DNA from: an uncultured Hyphomicrobiales bacterium
Lineage (GTDB): Bacteria > Bacteroidota > Ignavibacteria > Kapaibacteriales > UBA2268
Direction: 5' to 3'
Assembly: GCA_964464375.1 (NCBI GenBank)
Contig: CAYXFU010000012.1
Location: forward strand, 15,800 to 79,799
Length of the DNA: 64,000 nucleotides
Below, piece by piece: positions 1 through 59,760 of this stretch. A model generated the notes under the pieces. It was not told the DNA's origin. It did not search any database and saw only the letters and a list, made by a program, of their open reading frames with translations. The position numbers were made by a program, and so were the translations under genes. How positions within the stretch are numbered: position 1 is the first letter of the stretch; the number at the start of each line of letters is the position of its first letter.

Positions 1-352
1 TCCGCCAGAACGACTTTATCGCGTAGCGATTATATATTTAACCTCTCCGATGTAATAATTATTTCGTGGGTTCCGTTTTCTACCAATATCAAATCCCTAA
101 CGGGATTGATGAGAAAGATTAAATTGTATTCTGTATTTTCCCCTCTTGAGAGGGGATTAAGGGGTGTGAAGATTTCAGAAATGTAGAACAAATCCCGTAA
201 GGGATGAAAATAATATCGCGTAGCGATTAAATATTGGTAGCACAATGTCCGCCAGAAAGAACTTATCGCGTAGCGATTATATATTTAACCTCTGCTAGGT
301 AATAATTATTGCGTGGGTTTGGTTTTCTACCAATATCAAATCCCTATGGGAT
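1..352. repeat. Cluster of REP-like palindromes with a ~105-bp imperfect direct duplication (1-105 vs 248-352)
   Basis: tccgccagaa..tatcgcgtagcgattatatatttaacctct..tttctaccaatatcaaatcccta recurs at 1 and 248. Short hairpins atcgc-gta-gcgat (x3) and atccc-N3/4-gggat (x3). GC-rich tcccctcttgagagggga..ggggtgtg at 139-168. Confidence 0.8.
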
Positions 353-562
353 AGAAGGAGAATTGAATTAAAATTAAATAAATGACCTGACATTTACTAA
401 TTAATCTTAATTATCCTTACATTCATATTATAAATTATTACTGTGCTTTAATCATCAAGAACATGGTAAACAATTTTTGATTAATATCTTTACTCAAACA
501 AATTGAAAAAAAAATGATATTTTTGTTAGATTGATTTTTTCAAGAAATTAAATTGACTCTTA

Positions 563-2233
563 ATGCAGAAATATAAATTCATTTTCACTATATTATTAAT
601 CTCGATCCTCTCTGGTTTTGTGCAGGCTCAGGACGAAGAATATAACCCTGCACCCGGATCGAAGTGCGGTACATTCCAAACAAGCAGATTTCAGCCTGAC
701 CCCAAAAAGAGAAATGACAGAATCCTCAATAGCAGACCGGCTTTGCAAAAACAAGAAGTTTCGGCATCAGGATTATTCCTGATACATTTTGACACTACTG
801 GTCATAATGCTGTTCCGATGAATGATGACGACAAGAATGGTAATTCTGATTTTGTAGATTCAGCTTTGATTTTCATTGATTATGTATATGATGTTGAAGT
901 TAATCAGATGCATTATCTGAAACCCAAAACTGACAATGGTGTAGGTTCTTCCGATGCCTATGATATCTATTTGGTTAATATTGGCGACGGTGGTGATCAG
1001 GGTGAAGGACTTTATGGATACACTGACGCTGAAGATGAATATTCATCTACTTTCAACAGACCAAAATTTACTTCCTACATAGTTATCGATAATGATTTCT
1101 CCCAAAGAGATTCTACGAACCAGAACGGGAAGAAATACAGAACCTTTAACGATACAGGATATACAGCTTTAAAGATAACCCTGGCACATGAATATCATCA
1201 TGCAGTTCAATTTGCTTACGGGCAGGATTACACTTCGCCTTCATTAAATGAGATGACAAGTACCTGGATGGAGATTAGATTGGTTCCTTACACAAAAGAT
1301 TATCTTCAATATGTCCGTTCTCTATTTCGTGAACCAAGATCATGGCCTTTTGGCAATGGAATAGCAGAAACAGGGTATAGATATTCGATCTTTGGAGAAT
1401 ATCTTCATACAAATTTCGGTGATAGTGTTTTACTTAGAATGTGGGAACGAATTGCTTTAGGAGTACAGGGATACAAAGCTTTGGATAGTGCTCTGATTGA
1501 TAAAAATACTTCGTTAGCAGAAGAATGGTGCAAGCAACTAGAATGGTTTTACTTCACAGGCAAAAGAGCAAAAGAGAATCAATATTTCAAAATGGCTTCA
1601 CAGTTTCCTTTAGTCACATTATACAAAGATGAAGAATTCAATGAACCATCCTTTACACATTCAGGTGGTCTGTTGGCTTATGAATTCCGCTTTCTCAGAG
1701 TAAGATATGATTATCCGGATTTCAACACAACATCCGATACTGCAGATATATTAATTACTGATACAGACACCGAATCTGCCGTAAAGCAAGGAACTAGAGA
1801 AATGCCATATACAGTTGCAGTTTCATCAACTCCACTGACTGATTCCCGCGAATTCGGCAAGAATAAAAAATACTATTATCAGTTGTTAACTCCTCAATCA
1901 AATATATGCGATGCGTTGTTCTATTCCGGTGGCGATATTACCAAGCTAATCGGTTATGCTTATCCAAACCCATTTGTCAAAACGCAAGATCAGGATATGT
2001 TCTTTCCCGCACCTGACGGAGCAACAATAAATTCTAAGGTGGAATTCTATATACTTAATTCTTCTATGGAAAAGGTTTTCGAATCATCAACGATGGTAGT
2101 TGGACTGGATAATCAACAAAACAGAGTAATAATCTTCAGCAAAGAGCTAATGAATTTTTCAACGGGAGTTTACATATTTCATTCAAAGTATGGAAATAAT
2201 GAATGCTCAGGAAAATTTGCTATAATTCAATAG
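563..2233 (+). CDS. Secreted zinc metalloprotease (MXAN_6640-like) with T9SS-type C-terminal domain
   Basis: Signal peptide; AHEYHH zincin motif followed by EMTSTWME; C-terminal YPNPF...GVYIF...GKFAII. Confidence 0.75.
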   Translation: MQKYKFIFTILLISILSGFVQAQDEEYNPAPGSKCGTFQTSRFQPDPKKRNDRILNSRPALQKQEVSASGLFLIHFDTTGHNAVPMNDDDKNGNSDFVDSALIFIDYVYDVEVNQMHYLKPKTDNGVGSSDAYDIYLVNIGDGGDQGEGLYGYTDAEDEYSSTFNRPKFTSYIVIDNDFSQRDSTNQNGKKYRTFNDTGYTALKITLAHEYHHAVQFAYGQDYTSPSLNEMTSTWMEIRLVPYTKDYLQYVRSLFREPRSWPFGNGIAETGYRYSIFGEYLHTNFGDSVLLRMWERIALGVQGYKALDSALIDKNTSLAEEWCKQLEWFYFTGKRAKENQYFKMASQFPLVTLYKDEEFNEPSFTHSGGLLAYEFRFLRVRYDYPDFNTTSDTADILITDTDTESAVKQGTREMPYTVAVSSTPLTDSREFGKNKKYYYQLLTPQSNICDALFYSGGDITKLIGYAYPNPFVKTQDQDMFFPAPDGATINSKVEFYILNSSMEKVFESSTMVVGLDNQQNRVIIFSKELMNFSTGVYIFHSKYGNNECSGKFAIIQ

Positions 2234-12238: not shown

Positions 12239-13441
12239 TTGAAAAAAATGATTCTTGTTCTTTTATTTGCTTTAATGCAAGTATCCTATTCCCAGTGGGA
12301 GCAATCAAATGGTCCTTTTGGAGGTATTATTCTGTCTCTCGCCGTCAACGGAAATAATATTTTTGCAGGGACTGGTGAAGGTGTCTTTCTATCGACAGAT
12401 AACAGCATTAGCTGGACAGCAAAGAATTCGGGCTTGACTGATGCATATATCTTTTCATTAGCCATCAGCGGAAATAATATCTTTGCAGGGACTAAAAACG
12501 GTGTCTTTCTTTCGACAGATAACGGAACTAACTGGACAGCAAAGAATTCGGGATTGACTAATACAGATATCAGGTCATTAGCCATCAACGGAAATAATAT
12601 CTTTGCCGGAGCGGATGGCAGCGGTGTGTTTCTATCTACAGATAACGGAACTAACTGGACAGCAAAGAACTCGGGCTTGACTAATAAATATATCAAGTCA
12701 TTCTCCATCAGCGGAAATAATATCTTTGCCGGGACTAGTACCGACGGTGTGTTTCTATCTACAGATAACGGCAACAACTGGACTGCAAAGAATTTGGGCT
12801 TGACTAATAAATATATCTCATCAATAGCCATCAGAGGAAAAAATATCTTTGCCGGGACTGAATTTGAAGGTGGCGGTGTGTTTCTATCAACAGATAACGG
12901 TATCAGCTGGACAGTGAAGAATTCGGGCTTGACTAATAAATATATCCTGTCATTAGCCATCAGCGGAAATAATATCTTTGCTGGGACTTATGGTGGTGTC
13001 TATCTATCAACAGATAACGGCAACAGCTGGACAGAAAAGAATTCGGGCTTGACTATTACAACCATCACTTCATTAGCCATCAGCGGAAATAATATCTTTG
13101 CCGGGACTTTTGGCAACGTTGTATCCCGGGCAAAGCTGAGCGATTTTGGTATTAGTGATGTACAGGAAAGCTTTAAAATTTTGGGAGCAGAAATTAATAT
13201 TTTCCCTAATCCTTCAGAAAATACAATAAAGATCAAATATACGAACGATATGTCCGGGCAGGTTCAGATTACATTGACTGACATTAATGGTAATATTAAA
13301 ATGGAACGAGTACGGAATTCTGAAGTATTGGGTGAACAAACGGATATAATAGACACAAGTGCTCTTGAGTCTGGAACATACTTTGTGAAAGTCCAAGCCG
13401 GAAAAGTCAGCGGAGTAAATAAAGTCGTGATAGTGAAATAA
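12239..13441 (+). CDS. Secreted Asp-box/BNR beta-propeller protein with T9SS C-terminal domain
   Basis: About 7 near-identical ~40-aa repeats (GNNIFAGT..GVFLSTDNG.NWT.KNSGLT); CTD IFPNP...GTYFVKV...KVVIVK; SD GGAGG before TTG. Confidence 0.88.
   Translation: MKKMILVLLFALMQVSYSQWEQSNGPFGGIILSLAVNGNNIFAGTGEGVFLSTDNSISWTAKNSGLTDAYIFSLAISGNNIFAGTKNGVFLSTDNGTNWTAKNSGLTNTDIRSLAINGNNIFAGADGSGVFLSTDNGTNWTAKNSGLTNKYIKSFSISGNNIFAGTSTDGVFLSTDNGNNWTAKNLGLTNKYISSIAIRGKNIFAGTEFEGGGVFLSTDNGISWTVKNSGLTNKYILSLAISGNNIFAGTYGGVYLSTDNGNSWTEKNSGLTITTITSLAISGNNIFAGTFGNVVSRAKLSDFGISDVQESFKILGAEINIFPNPSENTIKIKYTNDMSGQVQITLTDINGNIKMERVRNSEVLGEQTDIIDTSALESGTYFVKVQAGKVSGVNKVVIVK
12325..13110 (+). repeat. Intragenic ~120-bp tandem repeats
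   Basis: ggaaataatatctttgc..ctatc.acagataacgg..tggacagcaaagaattcggg.ttgact recurs about every 120-129 bp. Confidence 0.85.
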
Positions 13442-17228: not shown

Positions 17229-17450
17229 TGTCTTACCTGCGAATGCAGGTATCTCTGTATTTGTAGGGACACGGCGTGCCGTGTCCTTGTTTTTATTCTA
17301 TTTCCAATGCTGGTATCTATTACTTTCTGTGCCGTTGGCACATCAGATCGGTAGAAAGACGTATCCCCACAAAATCATCTGCCGTCCCGTACGGGACGGA
17401 ACTAAACAGAAGAAGAACGATTTTCTACCGATCTGTTCTCACATCGGGAG
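17229..17450. repeat. Mixed REP cluster
   Basis: acctgcgaatgcaggt; gtagggacacggcgtgccgtgtcc; gtgcc-gtt-ggcac; gtccc-gtac-gggac; cagatcggtagaaa..tttctaccgatctg IR. Confidence 0.75.
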
Positions 17451-50014: not shown

Positions 50015-50225
50015 CTCCCTTCCTCGAGGAAGGGTCGGGGTAGGTGTTGTATTATTTTTTAGTGAAAGAGTGATTAGTGATTAGGAAAAAATCCCTAATT
50101 CAAAAAACACCATGAAATTGACTTTCTCTGTGGTTCTCTCAAAGATTTATTAAAAAATTACACAGAGTTGCACAGAGGAATACAAGAGTTACACAGAGGA
50201 ATACAAAACTCTGTGGCTCTCTTTG
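50015..50225. repeat. REP cluster
   Basis: cccttcctcgaggaaggg..ggggtagg (50015-50044); cacagag/ctctgtg repeats at 50124-50222. Confidence 0.6.
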
Positions 50226-50314: not shown

Positions 50315-52285
50315 TTATTTAGTCAGCACAACTCTCTCATAGAACATGTTTTTACCGCATGTGAAACGGATATAGTAAGTTCCGCTGGTTAGCGAACTCA
50401 TGTCTATTTCTTTGGTTGTCTGTGTCTTTTCTGATTGAACATTTGAATTCATAACTCTGGCACCATAAAGATCGAAAATTTCGATTGCCGTTTCCGGGCA
50501 GTTTGGTGTTTGAAGTTCAATTCTTATAATGCCGCTTGTTGGATTAGGCGATACATTAATAATCGTCTGAGAAACCGGATCGTTTACCGATCTGTAATTA
50601 TAATCAAACTCTTCAGACATTTCACTAATGCAGCCCTGATCACTTGTTACCTGGACATAATAAAGTCCCTCTTCAGTCAAATCATACAATTTATCGGTAG
50701 CACCCTCCACCTTAACGTCGAATTTGAACCATTGATTGCCCTTGTTAGCACTTGATACGAGCTGTCCACCCATTCTGGTTATAACAGGCTTAACGGGTGC
50801 TTTGTAAATAATGATCTGTAATGGCATTGTATCAAGACATCCTGTAATGGAACTCATCTTTACTACACTAAGTGTCGCAGGTTTAGATGGTCCCCACATT
50901 ATGTCGATAGTATCTTTATTGCTTGCGCTCTTTATTTCACCGCCTGTAACAACCCACTGTGTGGTTACACCGGGCTCATTTAGAACATAATATTGTTCCA
51001 GTGTATTTTCGCATACTTCAAGCTTACCGGTAATCTCTACATGAGGTAGTGGGTTAATAACTATAGCACTATCAATACCAGCCCCTTCTTCTTTAGGATT
51101 CGAAGCTACAACTCTTATTCTATAGTTTTTACCGGGGATAATACTTTTCGGAATTTTGCCGATAATAGTTCCTGATGTAGTACTCTGGATTGAGCCAATA
51201 TTAATAGTCTTCAGGAAATTTCCTGAGCTGTCTGACAATTGAGCTGTGAAGATGTTATCTGCTTGATAAACAATATTAGTGGTATATCCAATCGATATTT
51301 CACCACCCGGGCAGAATGACTTGCCTGTTACTACTGTTGTTATCGCCGGTTCCTGTCCCTTGAATGCACCTGAACCCCAGGTGCCGCAGTAAAGTTCCTG
51401 AGTGGTAGCTTGTGTAACAGACATAATAGATAAATTCGAAAGCCCGTCGTTAATGTTTTGCCAGGTGATGCCATTGTCATTGGAACGATAAATACCCTTT
51501 CCATAAGTACCTGCAACGATAGCACCATTCTGAGTAACAATCAAAGAATAAACCTGAACTCTTTCCTGAAGCTCCAGCATTTTCTCCCATTTGTTACCGT
51601 TATCTGTTGTTCTCCATATTTTGCCGTCTCTGGTTCCAAAGAATACGATGCCATTGGAACGAATACCAATAGAGTAAACATTCTGTCCGATAGGCATATT
51701 GTTCTTCATCTCCTGATATGCCTTCCCCTTTGAATTAGATCTGTAAAGACCTGAAGTAGTTCCAACATATATTTCGCCGGTAGAGCGAACTGCTACTGCG
51801 TTGACGGCTCTGTTCGTATCTAATCCATCTCTAACCTGAGACCAGGTTCCGCCTTTGTTGGTGGAGAAGAACATACCCGAATAAAGTGTACCTGCGTATA
51901 TAGCATCATCTTTGTATGCATTGATTGTCGTTATGAATTTGTCTTTCAATCCGTTATTTACTTCCGTCCATGAACCACCCTTATTGGTCGAGAAGAAGAT
52001 TCCGCCAAGTGTACCACAGAATAAATCGTTGCTGTTCAATACTCCGATAGAATAAACCTTTGTGTTCTTTAATCCGGAATTAGTTAATTCCCATGATGCT
52101 CCGCCGTCTGTTGTTCTGTGAACTCCTGCAACGGTACCGGCGTAAATGGCACCTGACTGACTGGCAATGATGTTTACGTTGCCACTTAATGATTTATCAG
52201 TCTGTTTCCATGTGATTTTCTGGCTCCAGGATAAAGTACTCACACTAATGAGTAGTATCAGTATAATAGTCAATTTTTTTATCAT
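50315..52285 (-). CDS. Secreted Asp-box beta-propeller + Ig-like protein with T9SS C-terminal domain
   Basis: Signal peptide (MIKKL start); T.DGG.SW / S.DNG.TW repeats; CTD VSPNP...GTYYIRF. Confidence 0.88.
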   Translation of the reverse strand: MIKKLTIILILLISVSTLSWSQKITWKQTDKSLSGNVNIIASQSGAIYAGTVAGVHRTTDGGASWELTNSGLKNTKVYSIGVLNSNDLFCGTLGGIFFSTNKGGSWTEVNNGLKDKFITTINAYKDDAIYAGTLYSGMFFSTNKGGTWSQVRDGLDTNRAVNAVAVRSTGEIYVGTTSGLYRSNSKGKAYQEMKNNMPIGQNVYSIGIRSNGIVFFGTRDGKIWRTTDNGNKWEKMLELQERVQVYSLIVTQNGAIVAGTYGKGIYRSNDNGITWQNINDGLSNLSIMSVTQATTQELYCGTWGSGAFKGQEPAITTVVTGKSFCPGGEISIGYTTNIVYQADNIFTAQLSDSSGNFLKTINIGSIQSTTSGTIIGKIPKSIIPGKNYRIRVVASNPKEEGAGIDSAIVINPLPHVEITGKLEVCENTLEQYYVLNEPGVTTQWVVTGGEIKSASNKDTIDIMWGPSKPATLSVVKMSSITGCLDTMPLQIIIYKAPVKPVITRMGGQLVSSANKGNQWFKFDVKVEGATDKLYDLTEEGLYYVQVTSDQGCISEMSEEFDYNYRSVNDPVSQTIINVSPNPTSGIIRIELQTPNCPETAIEIFDLYGARVMNSNVQSEKTQTTKEIDMSSLTSGTYYIRFTCGKNMFYERVVLTK

Positions 52286-57427: not shown

Positions 57428-59596
57428 ATGAAAAAAACATTATTATTATTATTAATAGCTTTCCCTTTCTTTCAGATTAGTTCAGCATTATCCTTAGATG
57501 CAAAATTAATTTGGAATAAGTATAGCAATAATGGCTCAATTAATCAAATCGAAACAAATTCAAATTCTGATATTATTTTTACAATAGGTCGAAGTATAAG
57601 AATATTTAATCAGATTGATAGAACTTTTCGATTTATTAAAATTGATTCAGTTAATTCAGTTCAAAAAATAAAATTGAACGAAAGTGAAAGCAAAATCTAT
57701 TGCTTTCATGATATAAAAGGAAATCTTAAATCACTCAGATTATCTGTTATTGATTTTGTAACCGGAAAAATTGTGAGTTCAATACAACTGGAATATACTT
57801 CGAATAAATTAAAATTTGTAGATGTTTCTTTTGACAATAAATACATTGTTGGTCTGGACGGAAATAAACAAGTCTATATTTGGGATTTTAAAACAGGATC
57901 TTTAATTAAACAATTTACTTCAAGTTCAGATTATTGGGCATATAATATTTATTTGTCACCAAAGAAAAATGTTTTGGTCGCGGCTCAGGAAAAAAAGATG
58001 TATTTGTACGATTTAGATTCAGGAAAGATTATCAACTCATTTAAAAGTAGTTCTTATAAAGATATTTTATTAACTTTTACAAATAATGATTCTCTGTTAG
58101 CTGAATATGACTGCTATGGTTACTTTTTGATTTATAACTACTATACCGGTGAAGTAACAAAAATGTTTAATATAGATATAAAGGAGTTAGGTTTTATATA
58201 CAGTTCTGATTTTGTTTTAAATGATTCCTTAATCCTTTATCGAACTTACTCTGGAATAGGTCTATACGATTTGAAATTTGATTCTAATGTTAAAACCATT
58301 TTAACTAAAATTGGTATGGTAACATCGTCTTATCTTGAGGTGAACAAAAGTAAAAGTAGAATACTCCTTGGTGGCGAACAATTGAAGGTATATGATTTTC
58401 CAGCCCTTAATCAGATTGACAGTGTATATGATTTCTTAAGGAGTTCAGAAACTAGTACTTTTTATAATTTTAGTAGTGATGATAAAAAACTGAATATTTT
58501 TACTACTTACAATTCTTATATGTCACCAAGCAATGATTATTATGCATTAGACATTGCTTCTACTCAATTCGAGAGACAAACAGGCTATGTAAACGATTCA
58601 TCGACTGCATATCAATTTCTCTCCAAGCTAGACTTAATAGTTTTGTTGCATAAAAACAAAATATCTCTTTTCAACACAAAAGAATCAAAATATGATCAAG
58701 TATTATCTTTTAATGATTCAATTTCTGAAATAAAGTTGTCTGAGGATATCAAATACGCAACATATCGTGATATAAGAACAAATGTCTGGAAAGTTATTGA
58801 TCTTAATAATGATTTGATTCTATTTGAACAGCCTGATAATTCTTATGGCTTCTATTTTTCTGAAACACAAAAATATTTTCATAGCTACGAAGGTAACGAC
58901 AAGATGAATTTAGTTGTTCGTGAAAGCAAAAATGGGAATGAGATTTTCAGAAAAAATGAAATCGAATCTTATGGAAGTTTCTTTTCAAAAGATGATAAAT
59001 ACTTTTTTAATCTTATTGATAAGGACATTATTAAGTATTCATTGGAAACAGGAGATTCTTTACAAAAAATTCCTGCAAATGAAAATTGGACCGGCTGGCC
59101 CTTTATTTTGACAAAAGATTCAAAATATATGATAGTGTCAACAAATAATGGAATGATTGAATTCTTCGACATGGATTCAATGAAAGTAACAAAAAGATTT
59201 GGAGGGGATTATGATTATCCCATCGGAGGATTTGTTTTAAGTCATGATGAGAAGAAATTAGCAATTCAATTTCAGGATAATTCACTTTTCTTGTATTCAC
59301 TTGATACAACAACATCTATTGATAGTCCCAACACTTTAGATGTTAGATCAAGTCAAATTTCCCCTAATCCAGCAACGGATTTCATAGAAATATCTTATCC
59401 CCCTCTTGAGAGGGGGGCAGGGGGTGTGATTATAAAAATATATAATGTGTTTGGGCAAATACAGACCACCCCGTCACTTCGTGACACCCCTCCTTGGAAA
59501 GGAGGGGAAAAAGTCAGAATCGATGTCTCCTTGCTTCCAGCCGGCATCTATTTTGTTAGAATTGGGGATAAAGTGCAAAAGTTTATAAAGTTATAA
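57428..59596 (+). CDS. AT-rich WD40-like beta-propeller protein with T9SS C-terminal domain
   Basis: Signal peptide; IWDFKTG/LYDLDSG repeats; CTD ISPNPATDFIEI...RIDVS.LPAGIYFVRI..KFIKL. Confidence 0.85.
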   Translation: MKKTLLLLLIAFPFFQISSALSLDAKLIWNKYSNNGSINQIETNSNSDIIFTIGRSIRIFNQIDRTFRFIKIDSVNSVQKIKLNESESKIYCFHDIKGNLKSLRLSVIDFVTGKIVSSIQLEYTSNKLKFVDVSFDNKYIVGLDGNKQVYIWDFKTGSLIKQFTSSSDYWAYNIYLSPKKNVLVAAQEKKMYLYDLDSGKIINSFKSSSYKDILLTFTNNDSLLAEYDCYGYFLIYNYYTGEVTKMFNIDIKELGFIYSSDFVLNDSLILYRTYSGIGLYDLKFDSNVKTILTKIGMVTSSYLEVNKSKSRILLGGEQLKVYDFPALNQIDSVYDFLRSSETSTFYNFSSDDKKLNIFTTYNSYMSPSNDYYALDIASTQFERQTGYVNDSSTAYQFLSKLDLIVLLHKNKISLFNTKESKYDQVLSFNDSISEIKLSEDIKYATYRDIRTNVWKVIDLNNDLILFEQPDNSYGFYFSETQKYFHSYEGNDKMNLVVRESKNGNEIFRKNEIESYGSFFSKDDKYFFNLIDKDIIKYSLETGDSLQKIPANENWTGWPFILTKDSKYMIVSTNNGMIEFFDMDSMKVTKRFGGDYDYPIGGFVLSHDEKKLAIQFQDNSLFLYSLDTTTSIDSPNTLDVRSSQISPNPATDFIEISYPPLERGAGGVIIKIYNVFGQIQTTPSLRDTPPWKGGEKVRIDVSLLPAGIYFVRIGDKVQKFIKL
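59398..59508. repeat. Two in-frame REP-like palindromes within the T9SS CTD coding sequence
   Basis: cccctcttgagagggg..ggggtgtg (59398-59428) matches intergenic 139-168; ccaccccgtcacttcgtgacacccctccttggaaaggagggga (59466-59508) is a related element in the opposite orientation. Confidence 0.8.
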
Positions 59597-59760
59597 AGTC
59601 TGTAAAGTAGTAAATTTGTATTCAGCTACGGAGTAGCGACCTGATTATAGAAAATAGTCAATAAAACGAACAAGAGCTCCATCGGAGCGGTCTGAAAAAA
59701 TTGCTCCACACAATTCAAATTTTGAAGATGTCCTACACCTCTCAGTTGTAGGACATCTAT
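59578..59760. repeat. aaagtt(t)at microrepeat plus REP cluster
   Basis: aaagtttataaagttataaagt (also at 60929-60950); gctac-gga-gtagc; gctcc-atc-ggagc; agatgtcctaca..tgtaggacatct. Confidence 0.65.

Follow-up and report, generated by a model that had tools for sequence, protein, structure and literature searches.

A T9SS cargo gene with two hairpin repeats in its sorting domain

The open reading frame (ORF) at 57428..59596 (+) of a 64,000-nucleotide stretch of DNA, here called the window (G000:C12:15800-79799, part of the 3.75-Mb genome G000, which comprises 79 contigs at 35.5% GC), encodes a 722-residue type IX secretion system (T9SS) cargo protein, which reads ...FIEISYPPLERGAGGVIIKIYNVFGQIQTTPSLRDTPPWKGGEKVRIDVS... 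in translation and whose C-terminal sorting domain (CTD) contains two GC-rich hairpin repeats in frame. The product combines a signal-peptide-like N-terminus, a WD40-like beta-propeller passenger, for which nearly all Pfam beta-propeller matches lie under the curated cut-offs, and a type A CTD, matched by PF18962 at residues 644-719 of 722 (35.1 bits, cut-off 27) and by TIGR04183 at residues 644-721 (26.4 bits, cut-off 23). By these profiles the extreme C-terminus is a T9SS type A sorting domain; its role in export is predicted, and such tags are removed after export. The SprA translocon gene is full-length in the same genome (TIGR04189, 912.6 bits; an open frame of 2314 aa at G000:C5). Our own hidden Markov model (HMM) places the 79-residue CTD at 59357..59593 (+), within a subfamily that reads NPATDFIEIS, slot 1, V.IKIYNVFGQ, slot 2 and RIDVSGLAPGMYFVRIGDKVSKFVKL, in that order; we refer to the coding segments that flank the two slots as A, B and C.

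Slot 1 (59393..59431, +; 39 nt, peptide SYPPLERGAGGVI) has a GC content of 0.59 against 0.33 in the remainder of the same CTD and holds element 1, a class II repeat in sense orientation at 59399..59428 (+), in which a 7-bp stem, CCCCCTC/GAGGGGG, closes the loop TTGA and is followed by a spacer and the tail GGGGGTGTG. Slot 2 (59459..59515, +; 57 nt, peptide IQTTPSLRDTPPWKGGEKV, GC 0.54) holds element 2, a class II repeat antisense to the gene at 59467..59507 (-), whose 9-bp stem CCCCTCCTT/AAGGAGGGG is followed by TG, a small inner hairpin GTCAC-GAA-GTGAC and then GGGGTG. Between the slots, segment B (59432..59458, +) is AT-rich, ordinary coding DNA for IKIYNVFGQ. An earlier note on this DNA had described two GC-rich hairpins in frame in this CTD, the first starting at 59398, one base from the start given here, and had read the second as the same architecture of hairpin plus GGGGTG on the minus strand; both descriptions are confirmed. 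So, by alignment, is its placement of the two peptides in variable inter-strand segments: when 49 CTDs are aligned, and likewise in solved CTDs, they fall on columns that are rich in gaps and unconserved.

When folding was computed as single-stranded DNA and compared with 200 shuffles, element 2 proved stable (-12.7 kcal/mol, z -3.7, no shuffle as good) and element 1 alone unremarkable (-7.2 kcal/mol, z -1.5, equalled by 16 shuffles), and the 120-nt stretch holding both reached -26.1 kcal/mol (z -4.8, no shuffle as good), with the GGGGTG/CACCCC tails of the two elements pairing across segment B. A search of the repeats against Rfam returned no match at E up to 1, and no terminator-like site was found in them.

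Relatives of element 1 occur elsewhere in the window, as the earlier note had proposed for positions 139-168 and 50015-50044. The 16-nt hairpin is letter-identical to 140-155, with GGGGTGTG next in both places, and its pattern gives four matches over both strands, compared with 0.03 expected and with no such count in 100 shuffles. The intergenic copy at 140..168 (+) is of a subtype with the spacer ATTAA. The second relative, an intergenic class II-like element at 50017..50044 (+), has the same build (CCCTTCC TCGA GGAAGGG TC GGGGT, that is, a 7-bp stem, a 4-nt loop, TC and GGGGT) and lies downstream of the CTD gene 50315..52285 (-), at a distance of about 270 nt. An intergenic copy of a GTAG-headed family (GTAGGGACACGGCGTGCCGTGTCC), which fills slot 1 of other CTDs, is found at 17262..17286 (+). 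The window's other two CTDs, at 13199-13432 and 50324-50554, belong to other subfamilies and are free of repeats.

The copy at 140..168 stands inside a 1.7-kb array without genes (window 1-560; G000:C12:14650-16360), built of composite units that are degenerate and measure about 250 bp. Besides several small hairpins (atcgcgtagcgat, atcccNNNNgggat), every unit contains one class II repeat; Tandem Repeats Finder reported no tandem repeat in window positions 1-900.

Many repeat families occupy the same two slots

A finder for class II repeats, defined as a hairpin started by CCC and followed by GGGGTG within 24 nt, gave 98 hits in G000, compared with one in the reversed genome and two in a first-order Markov copy. 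Merging left 97 elements of 25-41 nt, of which 42 lie inside CTDs and 55 outside, so that the count of copies in and out of CTDs called for in the earlier note shows the families to occur between genes as well. The copies inside CTDs keep to fixed offsets: counted from the CTD start, 10 sense copies of the element 1 kind lie at 39-42 nt, the 30 antisense copies, which comprise three kinds, are mostly found at 107-128 nt, apart from two fragments at 59 and 77 nt, and two sense copies of one of the antisense kinds lie at 109 nt. The subtype of element 1 recurs at the matching offset in 10 other CTDs (42 nt, or 39 nt in one case), and the exact 41-mer of element 2 is present in 11 of the 19 CTD copies of its kind.

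Class II repeats are one part of a wider occupancy. Among the 257 CTD-bearing ORFs that our HMM recovers in G000 (Pfam scored 150 of 321 CTD candidates, and all 150 exceeded the cut-off), the subfamily of this gene, NPATDFIEIS...IKIYNVFGQ, has 51 members by a strict pattern and 62 by a looser one, and 49 of the 51 carry GC-rich hairpins in both slots. Mean GC is 0.57 in slot 1 and 0.54 in slot 2, compared with 0.37 in the CTD remainder and 0.34 in the passengers. The other two members are empty, with short, AT-rich, unstructured slots (HNPNYEK and TIFTSSELS); slots measure about 7 and 9 residues in such empty paralogs and in solved CTDs, and 13-16 and 13-26 residues when filled.

At least six repeat families are found in each slot. 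The peptides that they encode are YPPLERGSGGV, VGANGRSPLQ, VGTRRAVS, INPMLKHGV, TRWAPLAKWSP and VGAGSEPAL in slot 1, and TTPSLRDTPPWKGGE, NPTPTLPASREG, STPVCSADTPASGG, VGAIHELPL, VGVQNFEPL and AGLEPA in slot 2, where the DNA behind STPVCSADTPASGG also occurs inverted and then encodes the unrelated SPAGGGVSSADGGG. Slot-1 and slot-2 fillers combine in 21 of the 42 possible ways, and the filler families designated S1b, S1c, S1f and S2d start with GTAGGG. All filler kinds but one have copies outside CTDs; the GTAGGGACACGGCGTGCCGTGTCC kind has 22 intergenic copies with a recurring left flank of their own. When all tracked families were merged into 266 loci, 129 fell in CTDs (a compartment of 58 kb), 96 in non-coding DNA (433 kb), 18 in other called genes (3.26 Mb), 15 near contig ends and 8 at gene edges. 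Three of the 18 loci in other genes lie in genes of the RAYT type (REP-associated tyrosine transposases, where REP stands for repetitive extragenic palindrome), and several others are CTD pieces at contig ends.

The 15 loci near contig ends are less than 150 nt from them (e.g. C38:1-110, C42:1-110, C23:33-63, C45:1-28 and C71:3-36), and several contigs stop inside CTD repeats, the repeat elements being sites where the assembly breaks.

Beyond this genome, the motif GAGGGGTG-N8-22-CGGGGTGG, with an inner segment that is always another small palindrome, is present in 38 of 301 genomes and 26 of 144 genera of the phylum, and the reversed control hits three of the 301 genomes, once each; class II is therefore old and widespread. 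In other genera of the family, the two repeats of a 251-nt CTD query find matches but the CTD flanks do not, and the loci inspected there are non-coding or lie in another gene. At one such locus (G018:C119:5393-5440, L010) a class II repeat stands in frame in an ORF that, judging by its translation (...DLPALRAPLLAKEGKK...VIGNIPYY...), resembles rsmA/ksgA.

Repeat DNA is more uniform than the codons around it

Among the 17 CTDs that share this gene's slot-2 kind, the slot is 0.943 identical, compared with 0.775, 0.766 and 0.750 for the three coding segments, 0.54-0.61 for third codon positions, and 0.31, the random level, for the 300 nt of passenger upstream. Other filler kinds show the same contrast, and copies of segment B are 69-77% identical between paralogs. 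The pattern extends across species, in that fillers are 0.89-0.93 and flanks 0.74-0.82 identical between G000 and its congener G001, our sister-species genome (17 usable CTDs, 20 loci). Low flank identity both within and between species indicates that the CTD paralogs are old, and the expectation that repeat-bearing CTDs would be near-identical at the DNA level was wrong: the flanks agree at 75-78% and third positions at 54-61%, and the repeats alone at about 94%. Intergenic copies are conserved as well as those in CTDs, and a 24-nt core of S1c is identical in both. The repeats are kept constant by something that acts on DNA or RNA, not on protein. Two clear compensatory stem changes were seen within families (CCCACTC/GAGTGGG and ACAGC/GCTGT).

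Sequence breaks between related genes tend to fall at the repeats

The type of filler is almost unlinked from the flanking codons. Segment C is 0.761 identical between CTDs with the same slot-2 kind and 0.757 between those with different kinds (p 0.31), and sharing a filler kind raises identity by 5-7 points in segment B and by 2 in segment A. Exact identity tracts of at least 25 nt join 311 of 1275 CTD pairs, a number that masking of the fillers lowers to 66. Searched against a database, the CTD returned 89 proteins with many kinds of passenger and a wide range of filler peptides, some of whose slots are empty, half-filled or doubly filled, half-filled CTDs occurring in metagenomes. Comparison of passengers among these and the G000 proteins gave 21 non-identical rows, which by our reading represent 16 distinct pairs; one pair is within-genome, and pairs at 51-60% identity may be paralogs. 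Fourteen of these 16 pairs of related passengers differ in at least one slot (eight in both, three in slot 1 only and three in slot 2 only), and two keep both fillers.

At the DNA level, 10 subfamily genes were compared with G001, and four found a passenger match of at least 80%. The sharpest break is that of C6_34_2190, which is at least 95% identical to G001:C147 up to TCTGTAGGG, the head of the slot-1 repeat; past it everything from the repeat body through segments B and C, slot 2 included, drops to paralog level, and the downstream DNA is unrelated. For C3_76036 the match stops where slot 1 starts (query base 803), as confirmed by alignment, and for C16_68788 identity drops at the CTD start or at slot 1. 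No passenger match of at least 80% was found in G001 for C42_2996, C29_30814, C3_21539, C4_22999 or C23_29569, and C34_8533 matched at 72% through the CTD. A G001 CTD that shares 88% identity with that of C23_29569 follows a passenger orthologous to another G000 gene, so that one tag allele is found on different passengers in the two species. Likewise, the downstream flanks of five genes match, at 81-92%, G001 contigs other than the one matched by the passenger or the CTD.

Orphan 3' fragments of CTDs (ORFs of fewer than 150 aa) point to the same place. They make up about 14 of 67 in the subfamily and 6 of 186 elsewhere, counts in which five were re-sorted by eye; among the 14, six start at the slot-1 repeat or within it and have left flanks unlike those of a CTD, six retain segment A and two are unclear. 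The proposal of the earlier note that repeats serve as recombination points is thus supported, three of the four ortholog pairs losing high identity at slot 1 and six of the 14 orphan fragments starting there. Its further proposal, that CTDs are grafted onto newly acquired passengers, is not: the breaks mapped here fall within the CTD or at its start, and a recipient must therefore already carry one. Nor is the domestication that it had suggested supported, given that many unrelated families, and one family in both orientations, share a slot and that empty slots exist.

Two higher-order arrangements of the repeats were considered and rejected. Pairing of the two slots as a REPIN (REP doublet forming a hairpin) would call for an excess of antisense class II partners in element-1 CTDs, and 9 of 11 have one compared with 33 of 49 overall, which is not an enrichment; a triple like that of bacterial interspersed mosaic elements, in which the repeats of both slots would be joined by one directly behind the stop codon, is by our reading present in only about 9 of 49 genes.

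For the gene at 57428..59596 itself, an ortholog was sought in G001, G009, G018 and G024, where the CTD alone matched, and contigs from four public read runs, compared with window positions 58700-59750, break at the CTD and collect paralogs, none spanning the domain. Its downstream DNA (59597-59760) holds the small hairpins gctacggagtagc, gctccatcggagc and gtcctacacctctcagttgtaggac; the first 100 nt recur 3' of the CTD genes C14_5025 and C35_18846, and in C14 they run into an orphan CTD fragment that begins at the slot-1 repeat. The downstream flank of C34_8533 matches G001:C58:19856-20221 (L103) at 92%, where only a 41-residue remnant of a CTD end adjoins it, and this cargo gene seems to have been lost or moved in the congener.

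RAYT-type genes adjoin several slot-filler families

The earlier note had called for a RAYT flanked by these repeats. Among 15 Y1_Tnp matches in G000, four genes, on contigs C33, C4, C42 and C36, are RAYT-like (NF047646, 65-87 bits, one over the cut-off of 80), and three of the four adjoin slot-filler families, namely S1b and S2d, S1c, and S1f/S2e. The GTAG-headed S1b, S1c and S1f/S2e are thus each found flanking a cognate RAYT, the arrangement known as a REPtron. For class II repeats no clear link to the RAYT genes of G000 was found, one related copy lying 85 nt downstream of the C42 gene; the prediction accordingly holds for some other slot-filler families, and none of the RAYT-type genes is clearly tied to elements 1 and 2.

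Three RAYT-like genes, at G000:C33:31474-32007 (-; L089:575-1108), G000:C4:8706-9287 (+; L090:1007-1588) and G000:C42:16644-17141 (+; L087:645-1145), are paralogous (50-56% identical), and each ORF carries its own flanking repeat in frame, in all three at one position just past the HUH strand, where it encodes VGANGRSPL, TARRVPTE or RTGLEPVPT; the RAYT profile match is split in two of the three. The genome also holds five copies of an IS200-type TnpA of about 117-130 aa (NF033573, 74.9 bits; e.g. C10:2175-2558, C55:13141-13527, C44:1265-1615 and C47:23541-23930) and a second Y1 group of four genes of 152-164 aa, one of them flanked three times by GAACTCCATCGGAGTTC hairpins.

Origin and maintenance of the in-frame repeats

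The two hairpins of this gene are copies of REP-like families that lie in frame in two variable inter-strand segments of one CTD subfamily. We consider it probable that these are selfish repeats, tolerated in permissive loops of the T9SS type A tag, which act as ectopic recombination points. The repeats would have entered loops that tolerate extra residues; little of the CTD surface is conserved, and export is followed by removal of the tag. Lauber et al. 2024 (PMC10994853) describe the contact surface of the CTD as poorly conserved and the binding pocket as plastic. Once in place, the repeats, as the main long tracts of identity, would give dozens of dispersed genes a stretch of near-perfect identity at one and the same in-frame position, where ectopic recombination and gene conversion could begin; since both partners carry the repeat in frame at the same place, chimeric tags would stay intact, and tails, fillers and downstream neighbourhoods could be shuffled at little cost. 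The same conversion, or RAYT activity, may also keep the repeats uniform. The filler peptides would be by-products, and a role for them is unlikely because unrelated peptides, including those read from both strands of one element, serve the same slot.

Several observations weigh against this interpretation. The families were picked from CTD fillers and the gene calls, which are crude, are our own, as are the definitions of the repeat families, so that the enrichment of loci in CTDs is inflated; the placement of the filler peptides in loops is predicted from alignments only. Element 1 is of one subtype in all 11 CTD copies and of another in all eight intergenic copies, so that this family shows no recent exchange with intergenic copies. 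The repeats are not the sole long identity tracts, 150 of 509 tracts of at least 20 nt falling in segment C, and the breakpoint sample is small at four ortholog pairs, with orthology continuing through the whole CTD to the stop codon in C33_9255. A crude count of stem changes, noisy because partial hits were extended without gaps, finds more broken pairs than compensatory ones, and the strong conservation of the repeats across species could equally reflect selection on the hairpins. Finally, conversion alone gives no account of how the families first reached the same slots, nor of the two orientations.

In a rival account, hairpin-specific HUH transposases (RAYTs or other Y1 enzymes) might fill and swap the slots by repeated site-specific insertion or replacement rather than by homologous recombination, with the slot borders or the resident hairpin as the target. 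The four RAYT-type genes, three flanked by slot-filler families and with their own repeat in frame inside each, fit such activity, as do the S1c core shared exactly between intergenic and CTD copies, the presence of one element in both orientations in slot 2, the break of C6_34_2190 exactly at the GTAG head and the half-filled CTDs of metagenomes. We nevertheless hold this to be unlikely, given that class II elements have no tied RAYT, that element 1 has distinct subtypes in CTDs and between genes, that no target-site duplication or shared target word was noticed at the slot borders on inspection by eye, without a systematic search, and that orthologs, where they differ, change in the whole 3' part and the downstream flank, beyond the hairpin. 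Quite unlikely, in our estimate, is also a further reading, in which the repeats are a maintained, enzyme-serviced exchange system resembling a shufflon: a RAYT or another hairpin-specific nuclease would nick the repeat heads, and T9SS cargo genes would then exchange their tails, their fillers and the neighbourhoods downstream while staying in frame and functional. If so, the secretome and the chromosome would be continually remodelled, and the conservation of the repeats would reflect selection for their role in exchange, beyond mere tolerance.

The hairpins might instead be kept for a function; for example, as RNA or DNA structures they could control how stable T9SS cargo messages are and how these are translated or co-regulated, or as loop peptides they could be used in sorting. 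A function would suit their fixed positions, their stability, the ability of the tails of both elements to pair across segment B, the two clear compensatory changes and a repeat DNA far better conserved than its coding flanks within and between species. This is, however, improbable, since each slot can be filled interchangeably by six or more unrelated families, in both orientations and with unrelated peptides, and intact CTDs have empty or half-empty slots; only 51-62 of the 257 CTDs belong to the subfamily, intergenic copies are equally conserved, broken stem pairs outnumber compensatory ones, and the repeats show neither an Rfam match nor a terminator-like build. The reverse direction, by which the sequences arose as codons of CTD loops and the intergenic repeats are what remains of CTD genes that have decayed, draws on the several non-CTD copies that are CTD remnants or lie at contig ends. 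It is already largely refuted and in our view extremely improbable, as the 22 intergenic S1c copies have their own left flank and lack CTD flanks, the repeats match without CTD flanks in other genera of the family, and the double GGGGTG motif reaches 38 of 301 genomes of the phylum.

These repeats are of interest to several fields. REP-type repeats are usually seen as intergenic, and here they are systematic in coding DNA, in dozens of genes and at least two species, where the neighbouring codons serve as an internal clock and offer a natural test of what keeps REPs uniform. For work on T9SS, the subfamily is a natural mutagenesis series: in two segments of the predicted sorting signal, almost any sequence of 6-17 extra residues is accepted. 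Repeats that lie in frame at homologous positions may allow dispersed genes to recombine and yet stay whole, and such recombination may help explain the poor synteny around cargo genes between sister species. In assembly and annotation, contigs break at the repeats, which also make cargo genes look similar that are in fact unrelated.

Comparison with known systems

The type A CTDs to which these tags belong (PF18962/TIGR04183; solved structures 8glj_D, 8glk_D and 7pzj_A) share with them the C-terminal position, the conserved motifs and a lysine near the end; the solved domains, however, have short slots, whereas the filled CTDs described here are longer, their extra residues being encoded by repeats.

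Our elements also resemble REPINs, which (PMC3337134, PMC3116915, 10.1101/2021.07.10.451892) are inverted repeat pairs a short distance apart, persistent, vertically inherited and very uniform, with a single-copy transposase, the RAYT, beside its own repeats. Elements 1 and 2 are likewise inverted, about 40 nt apart and with tails that can pair. Unlike in REPINs, the arms are of different subfamilies and pair freely with other families, the repeats are coding and class II has no assigned RAYT; because the arms differ and the slot partners assort freely, the slot pair is not one mobile unit and does not qualify as a REPIN. Of the marks of a MITE, namely the terminal inverted repeats of an IS element and target-site duplications, none was noticed at the slot borders on inspection by eye, without a systematic search.

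In-frame palindromes in functional genes are known for Rickettsia palindromic elements (RPEs; PMC3733652), to which our repeats are alike in that the genes that carry them stay functional. The likeness is one of behaviour: RPEs are probably unrelated in sequence and differ in host and size, and their sites are scattered over unrelated proteins instead of recurring at two positions of one domain. We know of no description of cassette exchange for RPEs.

A close counterpart is offered by the superfamilies of REPs tagged GTAG or CGTC (Di Nocera, De Gregorio and Rocco 2013, PMC3733652), which are mostly intergenic short palindromes, some of them in frame in genes, where the authors suggest that they are neutral because they lie in loops or linkers, and of which the GTAG families are associated with RAYT genes as REPtrons. 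Class II elements have the general features of REPs, namely short palindromes in many dispersed copies, and several slot fillers, themselves short palindromes partly in frame, start with GTAGGG and flank RAYT genes; elements 1 and 2, however, carry the tag GGGGTG, not GTAG or CGTC, and so stand apart from those superfamilies. We found no paper linking REPs with T9SS domains, in a search that did not extend to the supplementary list of intragenic REPs of PMC3733652, which could hold a T9SS case. In that paper, the genes decorated by GTAG/CGTC REPs are diverse, many of them serving replication and repair, and the insertion sites differ save in one recB case, whereas here the repeats stand at two fixed sites of one domain subfamily, dozens of whose paralogs carry them, and many families swap. 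In-frame REPs and RPEs are thus already known; new are the systematic occupancy of two sites in one secretion-signal domain by multiple families, the contrast in conservation between repeat and flank, and the breaks between genes that map to the repeats.

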